This document shows, in pieces, positions 22,568-63,610 of a stretch of 64,000 bases of DNA. Position 1 is the stretch's first letter, and each line of letters starts with the position of its first letter. The notes under the pieces are model-generated. The model did not search any database. It had not been told where the DNA came from and worked only from the letters and a program-made list of their open reading frames with translations. The stretch is from a virus. Both the position numbers and the translations under genes were made by a program. The stretch is from the IMG/VR virus record IMGVR_UViG_3300045988_174813; one strand, given 5' to 3'.

Positions 22568-22593
22568 CATTTTTCAAAAATTTATTATATAAT
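22565..22593 (+). promoter_or_regulatory. sigma-A type promoter
   Basis: TTGCAT-17-TATAAT. Confidence 0.55.
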
Positions 22594-22618
22594 ATATAAA
22601 GAAAAGGAGGAAAGCTCG

Positions 22619-23152
22619 ATGGAAGATAAAACTACAAAAACTACTCTCACTCTCTATTGCGGTCTTGCGGGCGCAGGTAAATCCACACACGCACGCGACT
22701 ATGCCACAAAAACCAACGCGCGCTATATATCCATTGACGCGTTCTATGAAGCTTGTTTTGGTGACCCAAAAATTCACGCCCACGAATTTGAAGTATGGAT
22801 GATGTTCTACAATGCCATTCGTCTTGCAGGCATAGACCACGTTTCAGTAGTCATTGATACAAATGCACCGACCCGTGCGAATAGAGACGAATTGTATAAC
22901 TGGTTTGCGCAGTATTTTGATACTACTGAACTTATGTGGATTGATGCCAGCCCTGCTTTGTGTATGGCAAATAATGCTTCGCGCGAACGCGTAATTCCTA
23001 CTGATGAATTTTTGGATATGGTAGATGCCTTTGAAGAACCAAGTGCAGAAGATGAAACTAGATGGGACACCATTTACCGTGTAGAAAATAAGCACAATAA
23101 GTTTAGTGGCTTTGAACTTATTTCTAAAAAACAAAAGAAAATTGGATTTTGA
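22619..23152 (+). CDS. P-loop kinase (AAA_33 / polynucleotide-kinase-like)
   Basis: AGGAGG RBS; Walker A GLAGAGKST; VVIDTN..R. Confidence 0.6.
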   Translation: MEDKTTKTTLTLYCGLAGAGKSTHARDYATKTNARYISIDAFYEACFGDPKIHAHEFEVWMMFYNAIRLAGIDHVSVVIDTNAPTRANRDELYNWFAQYFDTTELMWIDASPALCMANNASRERVIPTDEFLDMVDAFEEPSAEDETRWDTIYRVENKHNKFSGFELISKKQKKIGF

Positions 23153-25635: not shown

Positions 25636-25656
25636 CCCCTGTATTATGGGATATAC

Positions 25657-25685
25657 GGGCGGAGTATATTGCTCCGCCCGCTTTA
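25657..25685 (+). terminator. rho-independent terminator
   Basis: GGGCGGAGT-5 nt-GCTCCGCCC, then GCTTT. Confidence 0.55.
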
Positions 25686-25704
25686 GTATATGGAAGGAGA
25701 AACA

Positions 25705-25968
25705 ATGGAGAGAATATTCAGGCGTAAGCCAACATTTACTACTGCTATCCAATTTGATGGTAGCAATGCTTCTGATGTGATGAAATTTTGCGCGCGCCAT
25801 TTAGTTGAAGTTGGGAATAGATTAGTTCTTGAAACACCAGATGGGCCATATATTATTGAACCTAGCGACTTTATTGTCAAGGGCGTAGCAAACGAATTTT
25901 ATCCGGTAAAAGAGCATATATTTTGGAAAACCTATGAGGAGATTATCGTGAATGAAACTGACGTATGA
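25705..25968 (+). CDS. hypothetical protein
   Basis: AAGGAGA RBS before ATG 25705. Confidence 0.55.
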   Translation: MERIFRRKPTFTTAIQFDGSNASDVMKFCARHLVEVGNRLVLETPDGPYIIEPSDFIVKGVANEFYPVKEHIFWKTYEEIIVNETDV

Positions 25969-26269
25969 TGAATTTGCAGATTTTCTTGGGCGATATATTG
26001 AAAGTGAAAAGAAATTCAATAATTTTGCACAAGCAGTAGAAGAATATTTTACTGATACATATATAATGGCGCCAAAAGATAGTGAATTAGTTCTTGATAT
26101 TTTGCGCACTGTGATGAATGATGATGAAGATTGGATTAGTTATTGGATGTATGAGTTGGATTGCGGGCGCGCGTGGAAGCCATATATGGTAACCAAAGAT
26201 GGGGAAGATATTCCCTTGCGGACGATGGAGGATTTGTGGAATTTGCTAAATGAGGAGGCGCGCGAATGA
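25952..26269 (+). CDS. hypothetical protein
   Basis: 105-aa ORF, overlapping gene junctions. Confidence 0.55.
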   Translation: MKLTYDEFADFLGRYIESEKKFNNFAQAVEEYFTDTYIMAPKDSELVLDILRTVMNDDEDWISYWMYELDCGRAWKPYMVTKDGEDIPLRTMEDLWNLLNEEARE

Positions 26270-26985
26270 AGATTTATTTAGCTGGACCGATTTTTACTTA
26301 TGGAGATTTACTTCGTAATACTGAATGGGCGCAGAAAATTCGAGAAGCCCTTCCAGGAGTGGATTTATATTCGCCTGTTGAGAATACCGATATAAATGGC
26401 ACAGAAGGCAAGAAGAAATTTGCTGGCTCGCGCGAAATAGCACAGGCAGATAATCTTCGTCTTGATGAAACGGATGTTCTTGTGGCATGTATTGACGGTG
26501 ATGTATTGCCTAGCGGGACATGTGCGGAGATTGGAAAATTTCACGAAAAAATTGCGCGTGGAGACCATAAGCATATTATTGGTATTTGCACTGATAATCG
26601 CCAATGCCATTTGACTAGTAGCCCCGCGAAAGATGCTGGTGGAGCAAGCGAGCTTGGGGAACAACAGTATTCTTATCAGAATCTCTATGTGACTGGGCTT
26701 ATCAAGCAGTATGGAGATTTAGTGTATACTATTGACGAAGTAATTATGCTTCTAAAAAAGTATGCTAAAGAATATGGGCAGAAAGTTACAAGTAAGCGGA
26801 AAACTGACAAAGAACTTATTGAAGAATTTGAAAATGATATGACTCGTTGTCATTTTGAACGTTTTGTCGGTAATTATTATCTATATCATGATGAAGGAAA
26901 TGATGATATTTCTCTAATTAGCATCACTCCTTCTGGTACAATTCAACACTTATTGAGAGAAGTAAATTTGGAGGAAATTGAATGA
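26266..26985 (+). CDS. nucleoside 2-deoxyribosyltransferase
   Basis: MKIYLAGPIF.. start and ..DGDVLPSGTCAEIG catalytic-Glu region. Confidence 0.7.
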   Translation: MKIYLAGPIFTYGDLLRNTEWAQKIREALPGVDLYSPVENTDINGTEGKKKFAGSREIAQADNLRLDETDVLVACIDGDVLPSGTCAEIGKFHEKIARGDHKHIIGICTDNRQCHLTSSPAKDAGGASELGEQQYSYQNLYVTGLIKQYGDLVYTIDEVIMLLKKYAKEYGQKVTSKRKTDKELIEEFENDMTRCHFERFVGNYYLYHDEGNDDISLISITPSGTIQHLLREVNLEEIE

Positions 26986-28208
26986 AGTATGGAATAAAGG
27001 ATAAGCCTCCATTTGGGCAATTGGTTCTTTTCTCACTCCAGATGATGCTTAGTTGCTTTACCGCGACAGCACTTATTGGACAGATTTGTAATGTTCCTTT
27101 GTCGGGCGCATTTGTAGGTTCTGGGCTTGCAACTATTGTATATCTTATTGCAACTAAGTTTGAAAGTAGTATGTACATTTCTAATTCAGGCGCCTTTGTA
27201 TCACCTGTATTGATTGCACTCCAACTTGGTGGCGCGACTGCGGTAGCCATTGGTGGTGCAATTGCTTGTATCGTTTATTGTATTTTTGGCTTTATTTTTA
27301 TGAAGATTGATGTAAGTCATATTTATAAAGTATTGCCTAAGGTGCTTATTGGCTCCATTACTGTAGTTATTGGTATTACTCTTATGAGTTTTATTCCATC
27401 ATACATTGGTGATACTGGTAATGTGGGTATGTTTATTGCACTTATCACGGTACTTACTATTGCTTTTGTTTCTCATTATTGCAAGGGCGCGCTCGCATTA
27501 TTTCCATTTTTGATTGGCACGCTTGTGGGATATGTAGTATCTATTCCTTTTGGCCTTGTAGATTTTAGTGTTTTTGAAGGAATCAGTTTATTTACTCTAC
27601 CTGACCTTGGTTTCTTTCATTGGACAAATATTGATGTAAGTACTTTACCTAATATTATTGTTCTTTTTGTGGCATTTACAGTGAGCGCAATTTGCGAATG
27701 CCTCAGCGATCATGCGGTTCTTGGTAATATTATTGGTGTTGATTTGTATCGTAAGCCTGGTCTTGGGCGCATTTTTATTGGCGAAGGATTAGCAAATCTC
27801 GTGGGCGCGTCAAGTGGGCAACTCGCCCAGTGTAGCTACGGAGAGAGCGTGTCAACTATTGGCTTTAGTAAATGTAGTTCAGTCTATTCTACTCTTGGAT
27901 GCGCGCTCTTTATGATTGCACTTGGTTTTATTGAACCTGTGCAAGCATTCGTAGCATCTATTCCATCCTGTGTTATTGGCGGTGGTACTGCAATGGTGCT
28001 TTATGGATTTATTGCTAATAGTGGTATTCGTACCTTACAGTCAGTAGACTTCAATAACCAGAAGAATCTAATTATTTCTTCTGTTGTTATGTCCCTTGGT
28101 ATCAGTGGCGTTATTGTAGGCAATGATACATTCCATTTGAGTGGAACGGCGCTTGCTCTTATTGCAGGTATTATTTTGAATTTTGTATTGAAGGAGAAAA
28201 ATAACTAA
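26982..28208 (+). CDS. uracil/xanthine permease (NCS2 family, UraA-like)
   Basis: Collinear with E. coli UraA: SLQ, SNSGAFVSPVL, YGESVSTIG, GGTAMVLYGFIANSGIRTL, NLIISSVVMSLGISG; multiple long hydrophobic segments. Confidence 0.8.
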   Translation: MKYGIKDKPPFGQLVLFSLQMMLSCFTATALIGQICNVPLSGAFVGSGLATIVYLIATKFESSMYISNSGAFVSPVLIALQLGGATAVAIGGAIACIVYCIFGFIFMKIDVSHIYKVLPKVLIGSITVVIGITLMSFIPSYIGDTGNVGMFIALITVLTIAFVSHYCKGALALFPFLIGTLVGYVVSIPFGLVDFSVFEGISLFTLPDLGFFHWTNIDVSTLPNIIVLFVAFTVSAICECLSDHAVLGNIIGVDLYRKPGLGRIFIGEGLANLVGASSGQLAQCSYGESVSTIGFSKCSSVYSTLGCALFMIALGFIEPVQAFVASIPSCVIGGGTAMVLYGFIANSGIRTLQSVDFNNQKNLIISSVVMSLGISGVIVGNDTFHLSGTALALIAGIILNFVLKEKNN

Positions 28209-28432
28209 TGCTACGTTTGAAAGAAAAGTTGACATTCCGTTGTGAAACTGAAGATGAAGCTAAGGCGCCCATTGAACATTATAAGCAGGACGGGCACACG
28301 AATGGTTATGAAGTAAATAAGGTTTCTTATCAGTATAAAGAGAAGAAGGCTAAAGGGGATGTAATTGATTCGTGTTGGCAAGTAGACCTCGAACTAATTT
28401 ATACTACTATTTGGGCAGGTCTTGAAGGATGA
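28208..28432 (+). CDS. hypothetical protein
   Basis: 74-aa ORF, translationally coupled (TAATG). Confidence 0.5.
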   Translation: MLRLKEKLTFRCETEDEAKAPIEHYKQDGHTNGYEVNKVSYQYKEKKAKGDVIDSCWQVDLELIYTTIWAGLEG

Positions 28433-28860
28433 TTGATTGCCGTTATGCCCACGAAGAATACGGTAAAACTGTATGTTGGGGAACCAGAGAGCGTGAACTA
28501 TGCGACCCGCGCGGTTGCAAGTCTCAAGTACCTGTAAGGGGCAAGCCTAAAATTATCACTCTTTGTGGTTCTACACGCTTTATGGAAGACTTTTTGAATG
28601 TCGCGCGGGACTATACCCTCAAAGGATGGGTAGTTCTTATGCCAGGTGTCTTCGCGCACAGCGATGGAACAACACTTACTGACGAACAAAAAGCACAATT
28701 GGATGAACTCCATAAGCGAAAAATAGATATGAGTAATGCGATTTTTGTCATCAATAAGGATGGATATATTGGCTCTTCGACTGAAAGCGAAATACGTTAT
28801 GCGCGGGCGCACTTCAAAGAGATAGTGTATTTAGAACCTGATAAGATGCTAAAATTCTAA
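28429..28860 (+). CDS. deoxyribosyltransferase-superfamily (Rossmann-like) protein with N-terminal Cys cluster
   Basis: IITLCGSTRF....A.......G..VL.......L..LH..KI..S..IFVIN..GYIGSST..EI.YA. Confidence 0.45.
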   Translation: MIDCRYAHEEYGKTVCWGTRERELCDPRGCKSQVPVRGKPKIITLCGSTRFMEDFLNVARDYTLKGWVVLMPGVFAHSDGTTLTDEQKAQLDELHKRKIDMSNAIFVINKDGYIGSSTESEIRYARAHFKEIVYLEPDKMLKF

Positions 28861-28863
28861 AAT

Positions 28864-28892
28864 TTGATTTTTACCCTCCATTATGGTATAAT
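28864..28892 (+). promoter_or_regulatory. sigma-A type promoter
   Basis: TTGATT-17-TATAAT. Confidence 0.6.
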
Positions 28893-30066: not shown

Positions 30067-30220
30067 ACCTCGCACTTTCAACGAAATGGCGCGAACAATA
30101 CGAGGCTCTTGGGGCGATATAAATCCAGTCACGCGAATAGAGCGGGATAAAACAAAATATACAAGAAAGACTAAACATAAGGGTAAAGATAACTCCTACC
30201 TTTATGGGCTAGTAGCCTAA
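30047..30220 (+). CDS. small basic protein
   Basis: AGGAGG RBS; MKKKKTKPRTF..; last 15 nt overlap tRNA-Lys. Confidence 0.35.
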   Translation: MKKKKTKPRTFNEMARTIRGSWGDINPVTRIERDKTKYTRKTKHKGKDNSYLYGLVA

Positions 30221-30281
30221 TGGTTCAGGCAACGCCCTTTTAAGACGTCTGATGCTGGTTCGATTCCAGTCTAGCCCACCA
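30206..30281 (+). tRNA. tRNA-Lys (UUU)
   Basis: Acceptor GGGCTAG/CTAGCCC, anticodon loop CTTTTAA, T arm GCTGG-TTCGATT-CCAGT, encoded CCA. Confidence 0.85.
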
Positions 30282-30318
30282 ACCCGAAAGGGTATTCTAC
30301 TAGTAGGAGTGAAAATTT

Positions 30319-30684
30319 ATGGAACAAGTTCTTTCTTGGATACAGCTTGCCATCTAGGTTTTGTCTTGTCTCGTTGTAATCATTCCTCTTGGCTATAAGC
30401 TATACCAGACAATTGTTGCTTATGGCAAAGAGAAGAATTGGCCTAAGCTCGTCGGTCTTGTCGCTGTATATATGGCAGAAGCCGAAAAGAAGCTCTCTGA
30501 GGGAGCCGATAAGAAAACTTGGGTTATGGCTATGATACAAACCACAGCCAAGGAAATGGATTATGAGCTTACTGATGCTAAGCTTGCAGAGATTTCTCAA
30601 CTTATTGATGACCTTTGCGCGATGGCAAAGAAAGTCAATGTTAATGTTCTTCCTATTGAGGGCGGAGAGCCTGTGGTTGAATGA
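30319..30684 (+). CDS. LL-H-type holin-like protein (1 sense TAG)
   Basis: ATG 30319, TAG 30355, joins ORF 30361-30684; N-terminal TM then amphipathic domain. Confidence 0.45.
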
Positions 30685-30687
30685 ACT

Positions 30688-30711
30688 TTGGGAGGGTTTA
30701 TGCCCTCCCAA
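30688..30711 (+). terminator. stem-loop after the holin-like gene
   Basis: TTGGGAGGG-6 nt-CCCTCCCAA; no clear U tract. Confidence 0.35.
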
Positions 30712-30782
30712 TCTATAAATTTATCAAGCCCGCGCCTTCTAAGTGGACTTGTAATTAGAACTTCTATGTAGAAAGGTGGTTT

Positions 30783-31520
30783 ATGATTTTGAGTGTCAAT
30801 TACTTTTTCTCTGGGGATACACATGGAGATTTTTCTCGTTTTCGAGACAATCCCATAGCTCAGGATAAGAATAATTATATCGTAATTGCTGGTGATTGTG
30901 GCGCTAATTTTTTTGGTGGAAAGCGTGATATGCGAGTCTGGCAAGAAGTCTCTCAATACCCTTGCCGTTTTTATACCTATTGCGGAAATCACGATATGCG
31001 CCCGCAAAACACGTATAATATGGAACGAGTATATGATGAGGCAGTAAAAGGCTGGGTGTGGTGGAATCCTTACTTTCCTAACCTTCGTTATTTCGAAGAC
31101 TATGGTATCTATATGCTCGGTAAGTATAAGTGCGCCATCATAGGCCACGCTTATTCTGTAGATAAATACTATCGTCTTATGCGCAACTGGACGTGGCATC
31201 CTGATGAGCAACTTACTACCCAGGAACGCTATGAGTGTCAGAAGCTTATGGAAGGTCAGCATTTTGATTTTGTAATGACTCATACTGCGCCATATAATTC
31301 GCGCCCAGTAGATAAATTTTTGGCTTGTGTAGACCAGTCTACTGTAGATGAGACTATGGAGCATTGGCTTGAAGCTCTGCGCGCGGATATAGATTATGAT
31401 GTTTGGCTTCTTGGACACTACCATATTGACCGTATTCAAGAGCCTAAGATGCGGATATTCTATAAAGATATCGACAGTTTAGATAATATCTATACTCAAA
31501 TAGCAAAGCCCAAAATTTGA
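30783..31520 (+). CDS. metallophosphoesterase (calcineurin-like)
   Basis: GDTHGD, IAGDCG, GNHD, GH, LGHYH motifs. Confidence 0.75.
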   Translation: MILSVNYFFSGDTHGDFSRFRDNPIAQDKNNYIVIAGDCGANFFGGKRDMRVWQEVSQYPCRFYTYCGNHDMRPQNTYNMERVYDEAVKGWVWWNPYFPNLRYFEDYGIYMLGKYKCAIIGHAYSVDKYYRLMRNWTWHPDEQLTTQERYECQKLMEGQHFDFVMTHTAPYNSRPVDKFLACVDQSTVDETMEHWLEALRADIDYDVWLLGHYHIDRIQEPKMRIFYKDIDSLDNIYTQIAKPKI

Positions 31521-31545
31521 AAATTCAGAAAAATAATGGTATAAT
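31517..31545 (+). promoter_or_regulatory. sigma-A type promoter
   Basis: TTGAAA-17-TATAAT. Confidence 0.65.
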
Positions 31546-31577
31546 ATATATAGAAAATGAAAGTGAGGGAAAACTAA

Positions 31578-31826
31578 ATGATTACAACTAACGATTGGAA
31601 TGTAGTTCTCAAAGAGCTTGGCTATAAGGAACCAGTATCTAAAGTAAAGCGTAAGCAGAAGCCTACTAAGTGTCGTCTATGTGGCGCCAATATGGTTCCC
31701 CATCCTGGCACCAATGTCTTTACTTGCTCTGGCACTATTGAGAAGGAAATCGAGAAGGATGGTAAGACTGTCAAGATTAGTGAGTCTTGTCCAGGCGTGT
31801 TTCTGCGCAATCGTATTATCAAGTAA
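31578..31826 (+). CDS. zinc-ribbon protein
   Basis: CRLCG..CSG..C; 82 aa. Confidence 0.55.
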   Translation: MITTNDWNVVLKELGYKEPVSKVKRKQKPTKCRLCGANMVPHPGTNVFTCSGTIEKEIEKDGKTVKISESCPGVFLRNRIIK

Positions 31827-31864
31827 ATAACCCCATAAAATCTAACCGAAAGGGAGGACTAGTT

Positions 31865-32089
31865 ATGGAAAGAATCATTGTAGTAGTTGGCTATTTCCCT
31901 AAGTCTAGAGTGTATATGGCTAAAATTGTGCGTGGAGACATATGGGCGCAAGCTTGGAAAGACCAGTGGACTGCTGATGGTGGAACTGTAGCAGTAGGAA
32001 AAATGTTTTATACCAGTGGTAAGCGCGAAGAAGCCTATAAGACTCTCAAGACTAAACTCATAAAAGAAATAAAGGAGAAGAATAACTAA
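31865..32089 (+). CDS. hypothetical protein
   Basis: GGAGG RBS before ATG 31865. Confidence 0.55.
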   Translation: MERIIVVVGYFPKSRVYMAKIVRGDIWAQAWKDQWTADGGTVAVGKMFYTSGKREEAYKTLKTKLIKEIKEKNN

Positions 32090-32325
32090 TGGAAGATGGT
32101 TGGATAGATGTAAACTATTCCTTCTCTACTGTAGGCTATGCGCGTGATACATTACTTGCGCGATTACGGCAGATGGTTGTGAATTATGAACGGTTGGAAC
32201 TTGTGGATAGAAGTCATTGGAGTGATTGGCGCGAGACAATTCTTTTGCGCGGGTCTATTCGTGATGGAGAATATGGCGAGTTTCAGAAGTTTATGGAAGA
32301 AATGATGCGTGAGTATGATGTGTGA
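32089..32325 (+). CDS. hypothetical protein
   Basis: 78-aa ORF, TAATG coupling. Confidence 0.55.
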   Translation: MEDGWIDVNYSFSTVGYARDTLLARLRQMVVNYERLELVDRSHWSDWRETILLRGSIRDGEYGEFQKFMEEMMREYDV

Positions 32326-32328
32326 AAT

Positions 32329-32357
32329 TTGAATTTTTGAAAAATTTAGTGTATAAT
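32329..32357 (+). promoter_or_regulatory. sigma-A type promoter (variant leader TGTAAGGTTGAGAGAG)
   Basis: TTGAAT-17-TATAAT. Confidence 0.65.
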
Positions 32358-32385
32358 ATATATGTAAGGTTGAGAGAGAAATAAT

Positions 32386-32646
32386 TTCTTGAAACTTTAT
32401 ACGCACATATCGGGGCGGAGTATGCGACGACACGTGCAACGAAGCAAATAAACTCGGCAGTGCCTGTATATGTTGCAACCGTTGGAGGACGAGATAAACC
32501 TCCGGTAATTTGTAGTTTTCCATTCCTCAAGAGAAAGCTTCCGGAAATACGAGAAGGGAATGTATGGCGCGCGCGAACCAGCATTCAAAATCCCCACGAA
32601 GAGGGCATTTGTGGATTGGGTGTTTTGCCACAAGATGCACTAAAAT
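32386..32646 (+). ncRNA. promoter-driven ORF-free structured transcript, unknown class
   Basis: No RBS-preceded ORF; helices GGAGG/CCTCC, CATTCC/GGAATG, CCAC/GTGG; ends at the next promoter. Confidence 0.4.
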
Positions 32647-32647
32647 T

Positions 32648-32676
32648 TTGACTTTCTGGAAATTTTAGTGTATAAT
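32648..32676 (+). promoter_or_regulatory. sigma-A type promoter driving tRNA-Leu
   Basis: TTGACT-17-TATAAT; near-identical copy at 34550. Confidence 0.7.
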
Positions 32677-32696
32677 AAATATAGAAAGTGAGATAT

Positions 32697-32781
32697 GGGG
32701 AATTGGTGTAATAGGTAGACACAAGGCACTTAAAATGCCTGGGCGAGAGCCATACCAGTTCGAGTCTGGTATTCCCTACCA
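32697..32781 (+). tRNA. tRNA-Leu (UAA)
   Basis: Anticodon arm AGGCA-CTTAAAA-TGCCT, long variable arm, T arm ACCAG-TTCGAGT-CTGGT, A73, CCA. Confidence 0.85.
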
Positions 32782-32867
32782 TACAAAAGGATAGGATGAT
32801 GTTGGCCTATCATCTGATAAGAGATGCCCCTCTTCCTTTTGTTTATTTTAGGGCAAGGGGTAAATTT

Positions 32868-33503
32868 ATGGCGTATATTTATAAGATTGTAAATAGAGTA
32901 AATGGAAAACTCTATATTGGTAAAACTTAGTTCTCTATTGAAAGGCGATTTTAGGAGCATATTAGAGCCTCTAAAAAAGAAAATTGTGCTAATCGTCCTC
33001 TATATAAAGCTATGAAAAAATACGGGATTGACAATTTTTATGTTGAACTTATTGAGGAAACTAATAATCCAGAAGAGCGTGAGCAGTTTTGGATAAGATA
33101 TTATAATAGTTATGTTGGTTTTTCTAACTGTCAAGGTTATAATGCTACTTTAGGTGGTGACGGGAAAGCTTATATTGATAGAGAACCGATAATTGAACTC
33201 TTTTAGTAGGGTCTTACATAGAGAGAAATTTCTTCTTTGCTGGGTTATGATGCTCATACTATAAGAGTAGCTTTGAATGAAGCTGGATTTTCCCATAAAG
33301 AAATTGAAAATAATGCTCTTTCTAAATAGAAAAAGGGCGTTCAGATGTTAGATAAAATAACTTCTGAATAGATAGCTCTTTTCTCTTCTATAATGGAAGC
33401 AGAAAGGTATCTCCAAAAACCGCAAAGTCGTCGGCATATAGCTGAGGTTTGTAATGGAAAACGAAAATCAGCTTATGGGTATAAATGGCAATGGAATAAC
33501 TAA
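32868..33503 (+). CDS. GIY-YIG homing endonuclease (7 sense TAG)
   Basis: YIYKIVNRVNGKLYIGKT..RF.EH..N..LY.A..KYG..NF..E..E....REQFWI..Y; C-terminal ..NGKRKSAYGYKW; ORF 33012 shares the frame. Confidence 0.75.
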
Positions 33504-33538
33504 AATAAATTTATGGATGTATAACATCCATAATATAT

Positions 33539-33610
33539 GGCGGGAAGCGATGGTCGCAGATTGGTCTCATACACCAATTATTGAGTGTTCGAATCACTCT
33601 CCCGCACCCA
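33539..33610 (+). tRNA. atypical tRNA, anticodon CAU (Met/Ile2-type)
   Basis: Anticodon arm TTGGT-CTCATAC-ACCAA, T arm GAGTG-TTCGAAT-CACTC, CCA; D loop only 3 nt, G1/A72 mismatch. Confidence 0.5.
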
Positions 33611-34436
33611 TAGACGTGCCCTAATGCGTCTCTAAATAATCAGGGTAGTGCGAGAGAGGATGGATTTACGGTAAACTACCACTGGCGTCACAGACCCAAT
33701 AGGAGGGCGACGATATGTGGCTTGTCATTTGGAATCGCACTATAATACAAAGAAAACGAAAGTAACCGTGTATTTCTTATTCTGCGCGCCCTGCATTCAA
33801 AGCGCTCAATGAAGCAGGAGCTTAGTAGACAAAAGAAAAGGGTTCGTTTAGCTTATAACCCTAAAAGCTAAACTTTGTATAGAGGCGAGAGGATGAACCT
33901 CTATGGGGTTTTTGGTAACGGTCTCCTAACGAACACGTAACGGGTCGGAAGTCCCAAAATCTTCCCGCAGGCACGGCGATAGTTATCCCGCTTATGTGAA
34001 GGGTTCGTAGCGTAAAATGTACCCTATCCAGCAAGAAGCTACGCTGGGAGTGAGCTTCCGCTGGCAGTCGTGAAAAGCTCGCGTCTTAGGCTGTGTCAAT
34101 GCCCTAAGCGTTAGGTCGATTACGAGAAATTGACTAGGTTTTAGTGCTTTTGTGAAATATAAAGCTCCTGCGCGGGCGAGTGCAGAATATTGTAAAGGGA
34201 GAAGTACAATCCCATCGTTCAGTTTGGTCGTTGCTGTATAAAACGACCACCAAATGGCGCGCTTCCAGTTTCTAAATGCGTAGGTTGTCTTTACCTCAGA
34301 AATTATAGGTTGCATAGAAAGTAATTAGAAGATGTAAAATAATAATAAGTCCTATAAGAGTAAGGAAAAAGATAATGGTTAGATATGCAGGGCGTAGAGT
34401 TGATGGTGTGCTCGCGCGGAGGATGAAACCATCCAT
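33611..34436 (+). ncRNA. ~825-nt ORF-free structured spacer between two tRNAs (large ncRNA candidate)
   Basis: Looks GC-richer than flanks by eye; >=8 local helices, e.g. CTTAGG/CCTAAG 34085-34108, GGTCGTT/AACGACC 34226-34248. Confidence 0.45.
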
Positions 34437-34511
34437 GGAGTATTCGTATAGTGGCTAATATTCCAGTCTTCCAAACTGGCGCGGTGGGTTCAATTCCCAC
34501 ATACTCCTCCA
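34437..34511 (+). tRNA. tRNA-Gly (UCC)
   Basis: Acceptor GGAGTAT/ATACTCC, loop CTTCCAA, T arm GTGGG-TTCAATT-CCCAC, CCA. Confidence 0.85.
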
Positions 34512-34549
34512 TGGTTCGGTAGTTTATCCTTCAAAAGCTACCTAGAATT

Positions 34550-34578
34550 TTGACTTTCTGGAAATTTTAGTGTATAAT
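34550..34578 (+). promoter_or_regulatory. sigma-A type promoter driving the suppressor tRNA
   Basis: TTGACT-17-TATAAT; leader ATAGAAAGTGG runs straight into the tRNA. Confidence 0.7.
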
Positions 34579-34597
34579 AAATATAGAAAGTGGATGA

Positions 34598-34673
34598 AGG
34601 CCTGTGGTGTAACGGTAAGCATAGGAGGCTCTAACCCTCTTGATACTCGTTCGAGTCGAAGTCGGGCCTGCCA
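34598..34673 (+). tRNA. suppressor tRNA, anticodon CUA (reads UAG), Gln-like
   Basis: Acceptor AGGCCTG/CGGGCCT, anticodon arm GGAGG-CTCTAAC-CCTCT (CTA at 34631-34633), G73, CCA; one bulge in the T stem. Confidence 0.8.
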
Positions 34674-34803
34674 TACTAAAGGCGCACACAGCAATTCCTA
34701 ATAGGGTAAAAATTTGTTCTGCACAAACGAATTAGTTGGTTCAAATCCAACAAAAAAAACTTGCGTCTTGAGTTTATTTCAAAAGAAAGAAAGGAAAACA
34801 TTT

Positions 34804-35010
34804 ATGTCTACAAATAAAGGTTATATGAAAGCCTATAACTTCATTGCAAAGCCTGGTTCTAAATCCTCCATCGCACGTCAGGCGGAACTTTCCGCGCGAC
34901 CCGTTATTGTTCATTCTTGTAGTGTGTGCGGCGCGCAGGGAACATTGTATCGTACAAATAAGGGCGAACATCCTGCGGTGTATGTTTGTAAGGAGCATCG
35001 GGCGAAGTAA
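34804..35010 (+). CDS. small Cys-containing protein
   Basis: GAAAGGAAA RBS, ATG 34804; CSVCG..C..H. Confidence 0.5.
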   Translation: MSTNKGYMKAYNFIAKPGSKSSIARQAELSARPVIVHSCSVCGAQGTLYRTNKGEHPAVYVCKEHRAK

Positions 35011-35026
35011 GTTTCGCCCTATATAT

Positions 35027-35101
35027 TGTGCTTTAGCTCAGTGGTAAGAGCCGGCGACTTATAATCGTCAGACGATAGTTCAACTCTATCAAGCACAACC
35101 A
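35027..35101 (+). tRNA. tRNA-Ile (UAU)
   Basis: Acceptor TGTGCTT/AAGCACA, D arm GCTC-AGTGGTAA-GAGC, loop CTTATAA, T arm GATAG-TTCAACT-CTATC, CCA. Confidence 0.8.
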
Positions 35102-35514
35102 TTTGGGAGGAAGGATGTAATCCGTAATCTACCTCCACTAATATGGCGTAAGTAGCTTGGACTTTGCTCCGCCTATAATAGAGCCTAACTCAAAGCATAG
35201 TGTTATAGAGCGTGAGAGCCAACGTCTATGTTGGCTCCCGCAATTGAACAGCTAATTATTCATTTTTCCCTACCTCCTTCTTTGTTCTCTTTTGGTCGTT
35301 GAGAGAATAAATAAAACGACTACCAATAGACTTTCACACCTCTGGCGGGCTGCAAGTGGCAAATGAAAGTCTTTCCGAAAGTAGGAAAATCCTTCTACTT
35401 GCGCGGAAACCATTTCGGAATTGACCACTGCGATGGTATCTTCGTTTTAGAGGTTACAGCCTAGTTAGCCATTATGGGAAGTCTGGTCAATGGAACATAA
35501 TGGTTAGCGTACTT
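35102..35514 (+). ncRNA. ~410-nt ORF-free structured spacer
   Basis: Helices GAGCCAAC/GTTGGCTC 35215-35236, GACTTTCA/TGAAAGTC 35329-35371, and 12 bp TTAGCCATTATG/CATAATGGTTAG 35464-35508. Confidence 0.4.
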
Positions 35515-35591
35515 GGTGCCATCGACTAATTGGCTAGGTCACGACCCTTTCACGGTCGTAATGTTGGGTTCAAGTCCCACTGGCATCTCCA
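35515..35591 (+). tRNA. tRNA-Glu (UUC)
   Basis: Acceptor GGTGCCA/TGGCATC, anticodon arm CGACC-CTTTCAC-GGTCG, T loop TTCAAGT, CCA. Confidence 0.75.
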
Positions 35592-35624
35592 TATATTACC
35601 GATATATTAGAAAGGAAGAGACAA

Positions 35625-36398
35625 ATGGACATCACTAATTTTGATACCTATAATGCGCGAATGTCATCCTCTATTGAGGATAAAATGTGGTTTTGGGATA
35701 AAGTCAAACATACTACAGATTCTATTGTAGATTATGGATGCGCCGATGCGTCTCTTCTTTTGCGTATCAATGAAGAGCATCCTTATCAGACTCTTATTGG
35801 CTATGATGCTTCTGATGATATGCTAGCCCGCGCGAAAGAAAAAACTAAAAATACACCTATTTGCTTTGTAGAAAGTATATTTGAGCCGGAAATGAAAGAG
35901 ACTTGTCTTGTTCTTTCTTCTGTAATTCATGAAATCTATTCTTATCAGTTGAAAGAAGATGCAGATTTTGAACTGGGCATGATTTTTGACCTTGGCGCAA
36001 AATATATTGCAATTCGTGATATGGGTATACGAGATATATGCCGTAATATAGAAACACCAATCGATGTTCTCAAAAACATTTATGCACGCGATGATGTTGC
36101 TAAGATTGCTTCTTTTGAAAAACGTCAAGGCCGTATTTCTAATTGGGCAAATTGTATTCACTATCTTTTGAAGGCGCCATATGACGAGAATTGGGCGCGA
36201 GAAGTGGAAGAAAATTATGTACCGTTTACTATGAATGAAGTGCTCGCGCAATATAATGTGGATAGTCCTGTCAAATATGATGTGGTGTTTTTTGAAGCAT
36301 ATACCTTACCCTATGTGCGCGAACGCATTATTCGAGATTATAATATTAGCTTGTATACGCCCACTCACTATAAACTGCTTCTTGAACGTCATTTCTAA
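35625..36398 (+). CDS. class I SAM-dependent methyltransferase
   Basis: IVDYGCADAS (motif I), LIGYDASD, LVLSSVIHE; embedded in the tRNA island. Confidence 0.6.
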   Translation: MDITNFDTYNARMSSSIEDKMWFWDKVKHTTDSIVDYGCADASLLLRINEEHPYQTLIGYDASDDMLARAKEKTKNTPICFVESIFEPEMKETCLVLSSVIHEIYSYQLKEDADFELGMIFDLGAKYIAIRDMGIRDICRNIETPIDVLKNIYARDDVAKIASFEKRQGRISNWANCIHYLLKAPYDENWAREVEENYVPFTMNEVLAQYNVDSPVKYDVVFFEAYTLPYVRERIIRDYNISLYTPTHYKLLLERHF

Positions 36399-36405
36399 TC
36401 TATAT

Positions 36406-36489
36406 GCCACCGTGATGGAAAGTATACATACAAGCCTTAGAAGCTTGCGCCCGCGAGGGATTGCGAGGTCGAACTCGCCGGTGGCACCA
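36406..36489 (+). tRNA. tRNA-Leu (UAG)
   Basis: Acceptor GCCACCG/CGGTGGC, anticodon arm CAAGC-CTTAGAA-GCTTG, long variable arm, A73, CCA; T loop looks 6 nt. Confidence 0.7.
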
Positions 36490-36496
36490 GTAAAAT

Positions 36497-36525
36497 TTGA
36501 ATTTTCTGAAAATTTAGTGTATAAT
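36497..36525 (+). promoter_or_regulatory. sigma-A type promoter
   Basis: TTGAAT-17-TATAAT. Confidence 0.65.
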
Positions 36526-36559
36526 ATATACATAAGATGAAGAAAGGAAAGAAAATCTA

Positions 36560-36775
36560 ATGGCTTATTTTGATTGTATGGGAACTTGTGGGGTTAGTCC
36601 TTTCAAGTGTAAGAATCACTATTGTAGTGGTAATCCTCATTACACCCCGCCGAAGCGGAAAGTGAAACCCAAGCAGGGTTCTGGCAATCATCCTGTTCGT
36701 TCTATTCGTGCGAAAATTCGTAAGGATGATGGACGCGGATATAATTTCTTTAGAGATATGGCGCGAGACGAATAA
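36560..36775 (+). CDS. small basic Cys-rich protein
   Basis: GAAAGGAAAG RBS; 71 aa, K/R-rich. Confidence 0.5.
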   Translation: MAYFDCMGTCGVSPFKCKNHYCSGNPHYTPPKRKVKPKQGSGNHPVRSIRAKIRKDDGRGYNFFRDMARDE

Positions 36776-36778
36776 GTT

Positions 36779-36855
36779 TAGCGTATAGTGGAAGGCTCTT
36801 ACAGCGATAGATTTATAATTCTATTGTATTATTGGTTCGACTCCAATTGCGCAAT
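36779..36855 (+). tRNA. tRNA-like gene with 7-bp anticodon stem and 8-nt loop (TTTATAAT)
   Basis: Acceptor TAGCGTA/TGCGCAA (1 mismatch), T arm ATTGG-TTCGACT-CCAAT; non-canonical anticodon arm. Confidence 0.35.
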
Positions 36856-37239
36856 TGCGTATAGCTTAGTTGGTAAAGCAAATAAAAATTATTAGAGCCT
36901 TGGATAGTTTACCTTAGATAAGTTTGGATTTTAGTTAGTTTTGAGTAAAGACCCTTACAGCAAACATTCTAATATTTTTGGACTTATAATCCCGTGGTCG
37001 GTGGTTCGAGTCCACCTCAGACAGCCTGCGTGGTATGTCAGGTAGCTCAGTTGGCTAGAGCACGAAAATTATTTTGTGGGTCTTGTTTTATGTTTTGTTG
37101 GATTGGTACTCCTTAGTAAATAAAGGCGCGGGACTGCAATCTTTGAAAAAAGAATGTGATATAATAGATACTGTCGAGCGACCTCGGTAGGCTTGACCCC
37201 AAGTTCGGCTGGATTATCCAGCTCGCGCCTTGTATTTAT
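36855..37239 (+). other. cluster of unpaired tRNA half-molecules plus a structured element
   Basis: 5' half 36855-36880, 3' half ~36978-37024 (loop CTTATAA, T arm GGTGG-TTCGAGT-CCACC), 5' half 37036-37062; helix AAGGCGCG/CGCGCCTT 37124-37230. Confidence 0.4.
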
Positions 37240-37315
37240 GGATGGTTATCTCAACTGGAAGAGAGCTCGCCTTACACGCGAGAGGTTAGAAGTTCAAGTC
37301 TTCTACTATCCACCA
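37240..37315 (+). tRNA. tRNA-Val (UAC)
   Basis: Acceptor GGATGGT/ACTATCC, anticodon arm CTCGC-CTTACAC-GCGAG, T arm AGAAG-TTCAAGT-CTTCT, CCA. Confidence 0.85.
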
Positions 37316-37602
37316 TAGATTACCACTTGTTAGATTGTTATCCTCCTGAGACGTCAGCTAGTTCTGGCAATCAATAAGTGAATAATCTACGTCCAATATC
37401 TCACTCACGACGTAAAACTCTTGTGAGGTCGCAAAGGAGAGATGCGTGAGCGGGTCTCACTCCAGACTGCGTTAGGTCGAAAAGACGTCTAGCTCAACCT
37501 TTTTCTTTGTCTGTTCTTTTAGTGGAAGTATCGAAAAATGAACGGCAGAAACGTTTCGAGGTTCGAGTGGTTTCCTTGGGAGGACCGAAAACCACTCACT
37601 AT
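37316..37602 (+). ncRNA. ~290-nt ORF-free structured spacer
   Basis: Helices GTGAG/CTCAC ~37446-37460 and GTGGTTT/AAACCAC ~37567-37594; GACGTC-AGCT boxes at 37351 and 37484. Confidence 0.35.
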
Positions 37603-37679
37603 GCTTCCATACCCCAATAGGTAGAGGGGAATGGCTCAAACCCATTGTAGTCTCAGTTCGAATCTGAGTGGAAGTACCA
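37603..37679 (+). tRNA. tRNA with anticodon CAA but a short (class I) variable arm
   Basis: Acceptor GCTTCCA/TGGAAGT, anticodon arm AATGG-CTCAAAC-CCATT, 5-nt variable region, T arm CTCAG-TTCGAAT-CTGAG, A73, CCA. Confidence 0.65.
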
Positions 37680-37765
37680 TTGGCAGTTTACCACCTGCCG
37701 TCGATTTTTTTCTTTAGCATATGATAAGTTATGACGTTCTTATCTGAAATAAAAACGTCATCTAT

Positions 37766-37840
37766 GGGAGATTAGCCTAGTGGTTCAGGCAGTCGGCTGT
37801 TAACCGACCTACAGGTGTTCAATTCACTTATTTCCCGCCA
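37766..37840 (+). tRNA. tRNA-Asn (GUU)
   Basis: Acceptor GGGAGAT/ATTTCCC, anticodon arm GTCGG-CTGTTAA-CCGAC, T loop TTCAATT, G73, CCA. Confidence 0.85.
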
Positions 37841-37935
37841 GAACGGTTGTTGGGCCAACCGTTTCGTTTCCTCTTTTTCTTTGTAGGGTTTGGCAGTTTC
37901 CTTGGGGTCTCACTTCTAAAAACTGCCTTTTATAT

Positions 37936-38009
37936 TGAGGATGTGGTGTAATGGTAGCATTCCTGTTTTGGGTACAGGCGGAGCCGTTCAAATCGGACAT
38001 CTTCAACCA
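37936..38009 (+). tRNA. tRNA-Pro (UGG)
   Basis: Anticodon arm CCTGT-TTTGGGT-ACAGG, acceptor TGAGGAT/ATCTTCA, CCA; weak T stem. Confidence 0.65.
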
Positions 38010-38035
38010 TATCAAAAAAATTTAGGAGGTATATT

Positions 38036-38308
38036 ATGCCTAAGGTACTCTTTGAATGTAATGATTGTGGCAAGTTCTATGGCAGTGAAGCGGAAGCTCT
38101 TGCTTGTGAAAAAGCTCATGCTAGTGAACGCACGCGTAAGGAAAAGCTTCAGGCTGAAAAGAAAGCTCGTTTGGAAGCTATCCGTGCACAGTATGAAAAG
38201 CTTCTTGAAGATATTCGCAAGTTCAATGAGGACTATGCGGAACCTGCAACAATGAGTTATACTGGTGCACTTAGTAAGGTGTTGGATAGTTTTTTCAAGT
38301 TGTTCTAA
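38036..38308 (+). CDS. zinc-ribbon / coiled-coil protein
   Basis: AGGAGG RBS; CNDCG..C start, K/E-rich helix. Confidence 0.55.
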   Translation: MPKVLFECNDCGKFYGSEAEALACEKAHASERTRKEKLQAEKKARLEAIRAQYEKLLEDIRKFNEDYAEPATMSYTGALSKVLDSFFKLF

Positions 38309-38403
38309 GTGAATCATTGAATAAGATATAAAGACGCATAACAGCAATACATTATATAAATATTTTTTGAAAATATATTATGGAAATGCGTCTTGGTTTA
38401 TAT

Positions 38404-38478
38404 AGGAGCGTCGCCAAGTGATTAAGGCACGGGACTTTGACTCCCGCATCGTGCGTTTGAATCGCACCGCTTCTGCCA
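38404..38478 (+). tRNA. tRNA-Gln (UUG)
   Basis: Acceptor AGGAGCG/CGCTTCT, D arm GCCA-AGTGATTA-AGGC, anticodon arm CGGGA-CTTTGAC-TCCCG, G73, CCA. Confidence 0.85.
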
Positions 38479-38558
38479 GATAGATTGAATAAATCGTCTA
38501 ATTCAAGTAGGTTATAAGATAGTCTGCTAATTTCCGTTCAGCAGGAGCGCAGAAAGAT

Positions 38559-38586
38559 AGATATAAGACCTAATATATCTTTTGTT
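38559..38586 (+). terminator. stem-loop plus T run
   Basis: AGATATA-8 nt-TATATCT, then TTTTG. Confidence 0.45.
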
Positions 38587-38601
38587 CAATCAACCTAAAA
38601 T

Positions 38602-38630
38602 TTGAATAATTTCAAAATATATTGTATAAT
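38602..38630 (+). promoter_or_regulatory. sigma-A type promoter
   Basis: TTGAAT-17-TATAAT. Confidence 0.65.
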
Positions 38631-38665
38631 ATATACATAAAGTAAAGAAGAAAGGAAACACTAAA

Positions 38666-39037
38666 ATGAAAACCTATCCTATTGAGAAGTACAAGTTCAT
38701 TATCCTTCCTGAGCAGAAGAAAGTCATTGCGCTTACTTCGTATGCTGGTAAAACTGTAAAGGGTGTTGCCGTGTGCAGTGAACATGATGAATTTGATATT
38801 GAAACGGGCAAACGGCTTGCTGCCGCGCGAGCCAATGTAAAGGTAGCAATGAAGCGTAAGGCGCGTGCCGAGAAGAAGCTGGCATACTTTGATAAAATTA
38901 TTGAAGATGTCGAGCGTGAGTATCATGAGCTTGAAGGTTATGCTTATGATGCTGGCGAACGATGGGAAAACGCGATTGATGAACTGGCTGGTGTGCTGAA
39001 TGATGTTGGCGCGCTTGAGCCGATGGATATTGAGTAA
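38666..39037 (+). CDS. hypothetical protein
   Basis: GAAAGGAAA RBS; 123 aa. Confidence 0.55.
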   Translation: MKTYPIEKYKFIILPEQKKVIALTSYAGKTVKGVAVCSEHDEFDIETGKRLAAARANVKVAMKRKARAEKKLAYFDKIIEDVEREYHELEGYAYDAGERWENAIDELAGVLNDVGALEPMDIE

Positions 39038-39048
39038 GGAGTAAATTT

Positions 39049-39645
39049 ATGGGTCGGTGCGAAAGTAAGTATTGTGAAAAATGTGGGTGTTATGTGCCTG
39101 AGGGAGAGACAGCGTGTGTTTCTTGTGGGTATGATCCTACTCCAAAGCCTGTGCGCCGACCTGATCCTCTTGCAGATATGTATGCGCGAGACCCTTGGGC
39201 GATAGCGCAGTATCATACTCCTTTACCCATGGATTACGCACAACTGGTGAATGTGGCACCGAAGGTAAGACAGATGACTCTGAATGAAGTGCTTGATGAG
39301 TTGAAAATGGAAGATAAGTATGAGCGGTCCGCGCGAGCAATGAGTCAGATTTTTTGTTCAACTGCTCAAGCCTCTGAAGCTTTTACTCAACTTGCACGAG
39401 ACCATCAAGATGCGCAGAAACAGGTAATATTGCATGAATTTCTTTGGGCAAAAGGCGGAAAGGGCAATTCTTCAATAGTCACAACTCCAAATTGTATCAA
39501 AAATGAGATGGATAGAAATTGTTTGGAACTTTGTGAATATTGTTCTTTGGAACAAGAGAGAAAAGATATATATACTCACAGGATTATTAGAACATACAAA
39601 TGTTTGAAACATCCTCATGTGTCTTATATAAGTGTAATCAACTAA
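39049..39645 (+). CDS. zinc-ribbon protein
   Basis: CEKCG..CVSCG N-terminus; 198 aa. Confidence 0.55.
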   Translation: MGRCESKYCEKCGCYVPEGETACVSCGYDPTPKPVRRPDPLADMYARDPWAIAQYHTPLPMDYAQLVNVAPKVRQMTLNEVLDELKMEDKYERSARAMSQIFCSTAQASEAFTQLARDHQDAQKQVILHEFLWAKGGKGNSSIVTTPNCIKNEMDRNCLELCEYCSLEQERKDIYTHRIIRTYKCLKHPHVSYISVIN

Positions 39646-39647
39646 AT

Positions 39648-39741
39648 GGGCGTCTAATCCTAATTGGCTAAGGAAATAGTCTTGAAAACTATTAGTAGCA
39701 TCGTAAGGTGTGTCTCGGTTCAAGTCCGAGGGCGCTCGCCA
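39648..39741 (+). tRNA. tRNA-Ser (UGA)
   Basis: Anticodon arm ATAGT-CTTGAAA-ACTAT, long variable arm, T arm CTCGG-TTCAAGT-CCGAG, G73, CCA. Confidence 0.8.
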
Positions 39742-39743
39742 TG

Positions 39744-39856
39744 AATAGAATAGTAGGGTTAGCCTGTTCCGTGGTGATACGCGGGTCGCACCTTTGAGAA
39801 CGCCTTGTATACGGGTAAAACAGAGCACAAGCCGGCAATGTTCTCTCTATTCTATT
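39744..39856 (+). ncRNA. ~115-nt structured spacer closed by a 10-bp helix
   Basis: AATAGAATAG (39744) pairs with CTATTCTATT (39847). Confidence 0.35.
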
Positions 39857-39862
39857 TTATAT

Positions 39863-39950: not shown

Positions 39951-39953
39951 TAT

Positions 39954-40729: not shown

Positions 40730-40730
40730 C

Positions 40731-63172: not shown

Positions 63173-63610
63173 TCAACCGAGGGCAGACAAAATTTCCATA
63201 ATCTGCGACGGGTCAAAACTGTATTCTCCCCAGTTTTCGCGGTTCTTCTCTTCATCATCGAAAAGAATATCTTCCGCGCCGAGCTTGAAAGTTTCTTTCG
63301 GTGTGCCATACTCTACGACGTGGATAGCGTCCCACTTGACAGAGTGGAGATGCTTGTCAAGCCATTTCTTTTTGGCTTCGCGCACGGCTTCAAGATAGGC
63401 TTTCGAGCTTGTCTTGCTTCCCCACGAGATAACGCCGATAGTGTAGCCTGCGCGGTGGAGCTTGTTGAGCTTGCGCGCGAGCGTGCGCATATCACCGAGC
63501 GGTCGCGCCTGGGCATAGGGTCTTGGATTTTCTGCGCGAAGCATAGAAAGCCAATTTTCCACGGCGTAAAGGTCTGAAATTGTGCCGTCCATATCGAACC
63601 AAATCGTCAT
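63173..63610 (-). CDS. HAD-superfamily phosphatase, 5'(3')-deoxyribonucleotidase-like
   Basis: FDMDGT (DxDxT), ..ISWGSK.., ILFDDEEKN. Confidence 0.6.
   Translation of the reverse strand: MTIWFDMDGTISDLYAVENWLSMLRAENPRPYAQARPLGDMRTLARKLNKLHRAGYTIGVISWGSKTSSKAYLEAVREAKKKWLDKHLHSVKWDAIHVVEYGTPKETFKLGAEDILFDDEEKNRENWGEYSFDPSQIMEILSALG

Follow-up and report, generated by a model that had tools for sequence, protein, structure and literature searches.

A phage nucleobase permease coupled to a nucleoside 2-deoxyribosyltransferase: a candidate base-scavenging module

Why should a phage carry the gene for a nucleobase importer, and why should that gene be coupled to one for an enzyme that places bases on deoxyribose? 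The question is raised by a cassette of four plus-strand open reading frames (ORFs) at 26266-28860 of a 64,000-nucleotide viral sequence, IMG/VR record IMGVR_UViG_3300045988_174813 (the window, by which we mean this whole stretch). A first-pass annotation, made from the letters alone, had recognized in the cassette a nucleoside 2-deoxyribosyltransferase (NDT), a membrane-spanning NCS2 permease collinear with UraA, a 74-aa ORF and a second NDT-superfamily protein, and had proposed that they serve either simple salvage or a route to non-canonical DNA. Judged from sequence and genomic context, the cassette on balance probably serves nucleobase scavenging: a base would be imported, joined to deoxyribose by transfer, and fed into the deoxynucleoside triphosphate (dNTP) pool.

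The four ORFs, their positions and their organization as an overlapping operon are all as first described. The NDT gene (26266..26985, +; 239 aa) is followed by the permease gene (26982..28208, +; 408 aa), an ORF of 74 aa with no assigned function (28208..28432, +), and the gene for a 143-aa DUF4406-like protein with an NDT-superfamily fold (28429..28860, +). They are translationally coupled: starts and stops overlap at the cassette junctions, including that with an upstream 105-aa ORF, as ATGA, ATGA, TAATG and ATGA. The GC content of the cassette, 39.4%, is close to the 40.7% of the whole window, so the cassette is not compositionally foreign.

The assignment of the permease to the NCS2/NAT family, collinear with UraA, stands. 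The protein matches Pfam PF00860 (Xan_ur_permease) over residues 12-377 at 3.2e-44 and 151.7 bits, against a cut-off of 27, and aligns without large gaps to residues 6-407 of the 429 of UraA (1e-47, about 31% identity), including the YGE block (286-288) and the SGIR block; given this span the permease is full length and in line with the 14-transmembrane-segment architecture of the family. Hydrophobic segments are numerous, and the mean Kyte-Doolittle hydropathy is 1.03. Its score with the TIGR00801 superfamily model, 178 bits, is below that model's own cut-off of 291.8. The best named NCBIfam model is that of uracil permease, NF007995 (206.4 bits), ahead of RutG (119) and PbuX (115), and the protein has a PHROG of its own, 20031, with function unassigned.

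What the permease might carry can be approached through UraA, whose structures define the residues that contact uracil and the roles of E241 and E290 (PMC5539350). Among 80 distinct phage permeases the UraA contacts S72, E241, Y288, G289, E290, Y342 and I345 are invariant or nearly so, and the two carboxylates, E241 in transmembrane segment (TM) 8 and E290 in TM10 (E239 and E288 in the window protein), are present in all 80. Three other positions are altered: F73, N291 and H245 of UraA correspond to Gly70, Ser289 and Asp243 of the window permease, and throughout the 80 sequences to Gly, to Gly or Ser, and to Asp followed by His, respectively. The canonical NAT motif is [Q/E/P]-N-x-G-x-x-x-x-T-[R/K/G], with Glu at its first position in pyrimidine-type carriers and Gln in those of xanthine/urate type. 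The corresponding window sequence, E-S-V-S-T-I-G-F-S-K, does not conform to this signature: in the phage permeases the Asn is replaced by Ser or Gly (80/80), the Gly mostly by Ala, and the Thr by Ser (80/80), and the first position, in TM10, is Glu in every one. Comparison with canonical uracil-permease-like homologues (alignment A3) separated the ordinary from the peculiar among these features: the TM8 E-x-x-x-D-H pattern is normal in such homologues also (E-H-I-G-D-H), and Gly at 73 and loss of Asn291 are restricted to the phage-associated branch. From the conserved contact residues one would expect a functional transporter that takes a uracil-like ligand, and from the two pocket changes, F73G and N291S/G, a modified or broader specificity; with the two glutamates kept and F73G, N291S/G and H245D in place, the substrate is probably a pyrimidine, not necessarily uracil.

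The identity of the first gene product as an NDT is borne out by its match to Pfam PF05014 (Nuc_deoxyrib_tr; 9.9e-12), whose 45.5 bits pass the gathering score of 28.8, and by its match to the E. faecalis V583 NDT in the Protein Data Bank (PDB; entry 7m5h; 5.6e-21, 37% identity); it also matches PHROG_1817 at 1.5e-23. Residues 1-165 make up the enzyme core, and the C-terminal tail of about 75 aa that follows is specific to the window lineage. The tail itself (residues 166-239, window 26761-26985) gave zero family matches; relatives that are without it include the one at locus L013, whose NDT has 174 aa and whose permease is 97% identical to that of the window. In an alignment of the phage homologues with 7m5h, the Tyr4/Asp62/Glu88 triad is invariant and Pro37 nearly so, these being the catalytic triad and the transferase-type Pro in the roles given by PMC12884076.

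The NDT too has an altered pocket. Six residues before the nucleophile, where 7m5h, 7o62 and the Chroococcidiopsis NDT (8qc0) have Asp, the phage clade has Pro82, which lies in a clade motif VLP[SA]GTCAEIG and is preceded, at three residues' distance, by another Asp (DGD). The Asp that Pro82 replaces is the equivalent of D92 of the L. leichmannii NDT, which holds the 5'-OH of the deoxynucleoside. Members of the superfamily specific for deoxynucleoside monophosphates (dNMPs) are without the Asp or Asn that holds the 5'-OH (PMC12884076), and from its altered 5' pocket the phage NDT may prefer dNMPs.

The two genes occur together from whichever of them the loci are approached. A search with the permease-clade alignment yielded at least 240 IMG/VR contigs, many of them of 100-240 kb, of which the best 80 were kept. 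Of 92 loci with flanks of 5-10 kb, 73 have an NDT homologue, 34 the DUF4406-like gene and 25 the 74-aa gene; when the permeases are clustered at 80% identity, the NDT lies on the same strand and no more than 2 kb away in 22 of the 24 clusters. The NDT gene is usually directly upstream of the permease gene and sometimes directly downstream, so that linkage is kept despite the flip in order, and it persists down to permease identities of 40-44%. Conversely, sampling by the NDT alone gave 80 viral loci, and in 72 of them the permease is no more than 2.5 kb away; four of the eight exceptions end at a contig edge, leaving 72 of 76 evaluable loci. In these loci the NDT is by far the better conserved of the two, at 75-97% identity against a median of 43% for the permease partner. 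Among 185,579 species-representative genomes (GTDB), the permease clade (alignment A5) occurs on two contigs and the NDT clade on three, all binned into metagenome-assembled genomes (MAGs), and the permease is adjacent to the NDT in all three; a search of the GTDB genomes with the single permease protein gave zero matches. Because they are nearly absent from cellular genomes and reciprocally linked, the two proteins belong to subfamilies that are specific to phages and keep company; as a pair they make up a conserved module all but confined to phages.

Among named phages, precedent came from one group. A tblastn search of phage records with the permease returned mostly host-contaminated "phage" records at 23-33% identity; only Clostridium phage c-st (NC_007581) and its relatives were informative. 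In c-st a uracil permease (CST091), an NDT (CST093) and a thymidine kinase (CST095) are annotated, all within 3.6 kb. The earlier remark that phage-encoded nucleobase importers are uncommon thus holds for the searchable literature, where they are hardly discussed, but not for the sequences, given the number of IMG/VR contigs, the separate PHROG and the c-st annotation.

Several loci show departures from the simple pair. GIY-YIG homing-endonuclease genes lie in or directly beside the module at L006 (4694-5989), L010-L012 (7181-8011) and, in the window lineage, L001 (15818-16522); at L006 the gene call joins the NDT to a GIY-YIG domain in one 431-aa protein, and in L010 the endonuclease is placed between NDT and permease. 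At L007, whose permease is 44% identical, the gene between NDT and permease (1842-2414) encodes an S-adenosylmethionine-dependent methyltransferase, and a Stealth_CR2 protein is encoded upstream. The pair is also carried by a 151-kb contig of a Methanobrevibacter MAG from goat ileum (L107, JAFRFD010000012.1), with an NDT 70% identical; this is probably a phage contig mis-binned into the archaeal MAG.

The two small ORFs of the cassette are less widely kept. The 74-aa protein has close homologues only; its model, a confident one, predicts a small beta-alpha-beta-beta fold for which no significant structural neighbours were found, and it matches DUF7202 weakly (0.018). The 143-aa protein comprises a Cys-rich N-terminal stretch of about 40 aa and a DUF4406-like domain of about 104 aa that is common, at about 60% identity, to thousands of small proteins. 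It has no direct Pfam match of its own, but PF14359 (DUF4406) is matched by 19 of 27 sampled homologues, the best at 3.9e-6. Neither a PDB sequence search, which yielded noise only, nor hhalign of its family against the NDT alignment (probability 1.6%, not significant) connected it to the NDTs. Structure prediction did: the AlphaFold model (pLDDT 74 overall, 88-93 across most of the core domain) has as its top Foldseek matches in the PDB the Chroococcidiopsis NDT, DNPH1 and MilB (E values of 6e-4 to 2e-2, TM scores of about 0.5), and its top viral match is annotated "N-deoxyribosyltransferase" (5.5e-11). Its conserved motifs are TLCGSTRF and GSSTxSEI; Glu121, in the latter, is invariant, and so is Thr44, in the former, which by the register obtained from motif comparison occupies the position expected for the catalytic Tyr of the superfamily. 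The original description of a second NDT-superfamily protein is upheld at the level of the fold.

The surroundings of the module were surveyed within 3 kb in 36 representative loci. The most frequent neighbours are NrdD, the anaerobic ribonucleotide reductase (RNR), in 19 of the 36, dUTPase in 17 and an NrdG-like activase in 15; a metallophosphoesterase is found in five, a Bmp/PnrA nucleoside-binding lipoprotein in four and a dNMP kinase in two. Bmp/PnrA-like lipoproteins, of which one is also encoded near the L006 permease (13121-13233), are the substrate-binding component of nucleoside ABC importers, and the gene is thus a second uptake-related gene in the neighbourhood of the permease. In the window lineage the module sits away from the RNR/dUTPase cluster. 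The genome beyond the window was sampled by protein-based walking along a 97%-identical IMG/VR contig: this same-lineage relative, its permease 97% identical, encodes DnaB, RecJ, a class II RNR, Pol III alpha and a dUTPase of 306 aa with canonical motifs 3 and 5. We considered whether this dUTPase might be an NDT-Dut fusion like that of phage Wayne, and rejected the idea: its N-terminal 170 aa, judged by sequence, look helical, unlike an NDT. No thymidylate-synthase-like, hydroxymethylase, PurZ or TGT-type gene was seen in about 100 kb of the genome type of about 122 kb, at uneven coverage and with small ORFs scanned in part.

Two further nucleotide-metabolism genes had been pointed out in the window, and each is recognizable with a reservation. 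The dNMP-kinase-like P-loop protein (18017..18538, -; 173 aa, with a Walker A motif) is split by an in-frame TAG (18464-18466) that separates the Walker-A region from the rest; it is recognizable only when this codon is read through, and it then matches PHROG_139 at 6.7e-7, but its match to Pfam DNMK (1.8e-4) is sub-threshold. The HAD-family 5'(3')-deoxyribonucleotidase-like protein (63173..63610, -) matches NT5C weakly, at 6.5e-5 in Pfam, just under the cut-off, and at 2e-9 in PHROG.

The scavenging reading draws on all of these: the family matches, the conserved catalytic and binding residues, the coupling of NDT to permease, the RNR/dUTPase context and the existence of a c-st version. During infection the permease would be inserted in the host membrane and use the proton gradient to bring in a free base present in the gut lumen, with a uracil- or thymine-type pyrimidine the likeliest cargo. 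The co-translated NDT would move the 2'-deoxyribosyl group to the imported base from a deoxynucleoside that stems from the breakdown of host DNA, where the NT5C-like nucleotidase, for one, could release it from dNMPs; alternatively, a dNMP might be the donor. Host or phage kinases, possibly including the dNMP-kinase-like protein for the step from dNMP to dNDP, would carry the product to dNTP, and the DUF4406-like protein could be an accessory, a second nucleotide- or nucleoside-binding protein of NDT fold. The net effect would be a dNTP pool enlarged and re-balanced for a genome of 41% GC, with dTTP obtained without thymidylate synthase. The salvage proposal of the first-pass annotation thus gains support from the reciprocal, phage-specific linkage, from the NrdD/NrdG and dUTPase neighbours and from the c-st thymidine kinase.

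Some observations weigh against this reading, and they lead directly to its rivals. The permease, at 206.4 bits, fails the cut-off of 477 for the uracil-permease equivalog; being so far under it, and with its binding site altered, it is a divergent relative rather than a UraA orthologue. With the otherwise almost universal NAT Asn lost and Phe73 changed to Gly in every member, its substrate could be other than uracil or thymine. Lacking the Asp of the 5'-OH site, the NDT may be unable to work on plain deoxynucleosides. A deoxynucleoside or thymidine kinase gene near the module is absent from the window and from all 187 metagenomic loci, so that a host kinase must be assumed, and some 15-20 kb of the genome type lies outside the sampled stretch. 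The altered NDT pocket and the lack of a thymidine kinase fit a variant in which salvage would take place at the level of nucleotides, the NDT acting as a phosphodeoxyribosyltransferase that swaps a base onto a dNMP from host DNA and needs no nucleoside kinase, and the DUF4406-like protein, with its CGSTR loop, acting as a dNMP-binding hydrolase or helper. Pro82 in place of Asp, its parallel in the dNMP-specific enzymes, the occurrence near the module of dNMP-kinase genes where nucleoside kinases are lacking, and the c-st NDT, which keeps the Asp and comes with a thymidine kinase, all favour this scheme. The C-G-S-T-R of the 143-aa protein may correspond to the phosphate-binding C-G-S-I-R of DNPH1. 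But the Asp three residues earlier may mean that the pocket has been rebuilt rather than lost, the 143-aa protein has Thr at the catalytic Tyr position and is present in only 34 of the 92 related loci, and a host thymidine kinase could serve the nucleoside route; we regard nucleotide-level salvage as unlikely overall, though the likeliest of the rivals. A bolder proposal, that the pair performs base exchange directly on dNMPs independently of thymidylate synthase, or installs an imported non-standard base, as a transporter-fed counterpart of the phage enzyme DmtZ, seems to us rather unlikely. Were it true, the make-up of phage DNA, or even its chemistry, would depend on which nucleobases the gut supplies from outside the cell.

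From there it is a short step to the other half of the original proposal, that the module makes non-canonical DNA: imported uracil or an unusual base would be loaded on deoxyribose by the NDT-fold enzymes and replace a canonical base, giving DNA with dU or with a modified pyrimidine or purine. NDT-family enzymes do take part in phage Z-DNA synthesis, in which DmtZ acts as a dAMP hydrolase and passes deoxyribose-5-phosphate on to the Z base (PMC12884076), and an NDT is associated with dZ contigs (bioRxiv 10.1101/2025.10.22.683976); the pocket altered in all 80 permeases, the presence of two NDT-fold genes in one operon and the methyltransferase between NDT and permease at L007 could be read in the same way. 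Against this, the canonical dUTPase of the same lineage and the dUTPase genes beside the module in 17 of the 36 loci argue against DNA containing dU; no PurZ, thymidylate-synthase-like, hydroxymethylase, DpdA/TGT or glycosyltransferase family was found in the window or the sampled flanks; and a modified free base would need to exist in the gut lumen. Non-canonical DNA gained no positive support from our analysis and is distinctly improbable. The change at the permease pocket could instead signal a different cargo, a purine (xanthine, hypoxanthine or guanine) or a broad range of bases, in which case the module would re-balance purine dNTPs. F73G and N291S/G should enlarge the pocket, and the permease has a TM8 motif, E-x-x-x-D, like that of the xanthine/urate carriers XanQ and UapA. 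RutG-type relatives are reported to take more than one base (PMC6308229). The TM8 pattern is, however, equally normal in uracil-permease-like homologues, the TM10 residue is Glu in all 80, where purine carriers have Gln, the score with the uracil permease model is much higher than that with the xanthine model, and the c-st version adjoins a thymidine kinase; a purine or broad-range role is quite unlikely. Finally, the genes might be host-derived passengers, or serve host takeover through nucleotide destruction and base export, or anti-defence. NDT-fold and SLOG/TIR-like proteins act as defence effectors, ThsB and TIR entries come up in the fold search as well, and PADLOC matched the NDT weakly to PDC-S10 (0.0023). 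That match is marginal and short, and PADLOC gave no convincing defence-system match; moreover, both clades are essentially absent from the 185,579 species genomes, their binding and catalytic residues are strongly conserved, the module is located in a replication and nucleotide-metabolism region, and NCS2 carriers are importing proton symporters. We consider such a role very improbable, and base scavenging continues to be the reading we prefer.

The limits of the transcription unit can be proposed from the flanking sequence. A strong terminator-like hairpin at 25656..25680 (+), with an 11-bp stem containing 8 GC pairs, probably ends the upstream unit. It is followed by a 92-aa ORF (25690..25968, +), of unassigned function, without a Pfam match and with a PHROG_419 match of 1.7e-20 (unknown function), which overlaps the next ORF and is probably the first gene of the cassette unit; then by the 105-aa ORF (25952..26269, +), also of unassigned function, which overlaps the NDT gene and is kept only in close relatives. 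Directly 3' of the cassette, at 28864..28892 (+), is a promoter-like site (TTGATT, 17-nt spacer, TG-TATAAT with extended -10) that is likely to start the next unit. With the coupled upstream ORFs, the hairpin and the promoter-like site as boundaries, the transcription unit probably extends over 25690-28860.

The window is part of a human-gut phage of about 122 kb: an identical permease is encoded on public human-gut metagenome contigs of 103-123 kb, for example BRIT16-1 scaffold_150 (122,567 bp). It encodes a GH25 + CW_7 endolysin, an NlpC/P60 protein, RNase H, an ATP-dependent ligase and PhoH, and its flanks add UvrD, GyrB/GyrA and SPbeta-type YorF/YonG domains; the source is a large phage of a Gram-positive host, probably clostridial. 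One protein among the 109 window ORFs scanned matches the Spo0A C-terminal DNA-binding domain (3.6e-10), as would suit a host that forms spores and a phage that possibly interferes with how sporulation is controlled. TAG appears to be recoded in this phage: a tRNA gene with a CTA anticodon lies at 34598-34673 (+), a 1007-codon frame at 6149-9169 (+) contains two TAGs and is a single 1001-aa protein in public gene calls, and the TAG within the P-loop gene (18017-18538, -) is likewise read through in those calls. Several NDT homologues of related loci (L007, L070, L081), too, are interrupted by stops when read with code 11. An effect of recoding on the cassette was considered and dropped, the four cassette genes having zero in-frame TAG. 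The tRNA gene belongs to an array at 30206-40730 (+) of 16 tRNA genes mixed with small ORFs; two of the window tRNAs, with odd anticodon loops, were left unassigned by ARAGORN (36779-36855 and 40649-40730). A DUF2828/DUF7788 protein (PHROG "RNA-binding protein"; 20927-22519, +), followed by an AAA_33 polynucleotide-kinase-like protein (22532-23152, +), together with an RNA-ligase-domain match elsewhere in the window, suggests an RNA-repair set adjoining the tRNA-rich region.

Phage DNA precursors are usually seen as coming from breakdown of host DNA and from de novo synthesis inside the cell. If base scavenging is indeed the role of the module, many large phages of gut and rumen would draw on extracellular nucleobases as well, their productivity would be tied to the metabolite content of the gut, and they might bypass host defences that deplete nucleotides. 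Apart from any role in infection, the module brings a new NCS2 subfamily whose binding pocket is altered and an NDT subfamily altered in its 5' pocket, and both should be useful in work on transporter specificity and on biocatalysis of nucleoside analogues. The enzymology of the pair is worth testing because phage NDT-family enzymes have turned out to remodel nucleotide pools in unexpected ways (PMC12884076; bioRxiv 10.1101/2025.10.22.683976).

Parts of the module are already known. Phage NDT genes are common (PHROG_1817), phage nucleotide-salvage genes are a known kind, and the c-st annotation is a precedent for the pair. Our literature search found nothing that describes a phage NCS2 permease, the NDT-permease pair, its subfamilies or their binding-site signature, the function of DUF4406, or the c-st module, and a megablast search of 50,697 phage records with the 25-30 kb stretch of the window found no match. 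In c-st, as in the window, genes for an NCS2 permease and an NDT share a strand, there within about 0.5 kb, and the c-st permease shares the Gly at UraA F73, the TM8 E...SD pattern and a residue other than Asn after the TM10 Glu. Phage c-st differs in that its proteins have only 25% (permease) and 24% (NDT) identity with those of the window, its two genes come in the opposite order, its NDT retains the Asp for the 5'-OH, it has a thymidine kinase where the window clade has none, and it lacks homologues of the 74-aa and 143-aa ORFs.

Set beside the cellular transporters E. coli UraA and Gram-positive PyrP (NCS2/NAT, COG2233), the phage permease is collinear and conserves E241, E290, G289, S72, Y342 and I345, but is distinguished by Gly at F73, Ser or Gly at N291, its deviant NAT motif, restriction to phages and linkage to an NDT. 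The bacterial NDTs (7M5H, the Lactobacillus NDT/PDT enzymes and the Chroococcidiopsis NDT) share with the phage enzyme PF05014, the Tyr/Asp/Glu triad and the conserved Pro; the phage clade differs in having Pro for Asp six residues before the nucleophile, in being phage-restricted and, in the window lineage, in its 75-aa tail. Another phage system, DmtZ/DutZ of the PurZ0 actinophages, pairs an NDT-family dAMP hydrolase/transferase with a Dut-like dNTPase (PMC12884076). In both cases a phage NDT-superfamily enzyme without the 5'-OH Asp acts, or would act, on the nucleotide pool, often near a dUTPase-family gene, a likeness drawn by description rather than by sequence; but no PurZ was seen in the window lineage, where the N-terminal domain of the dUTPase looks helical and is unrelated, not an NDT, and the DmtZ systems are without the transporter that marks the module described here.

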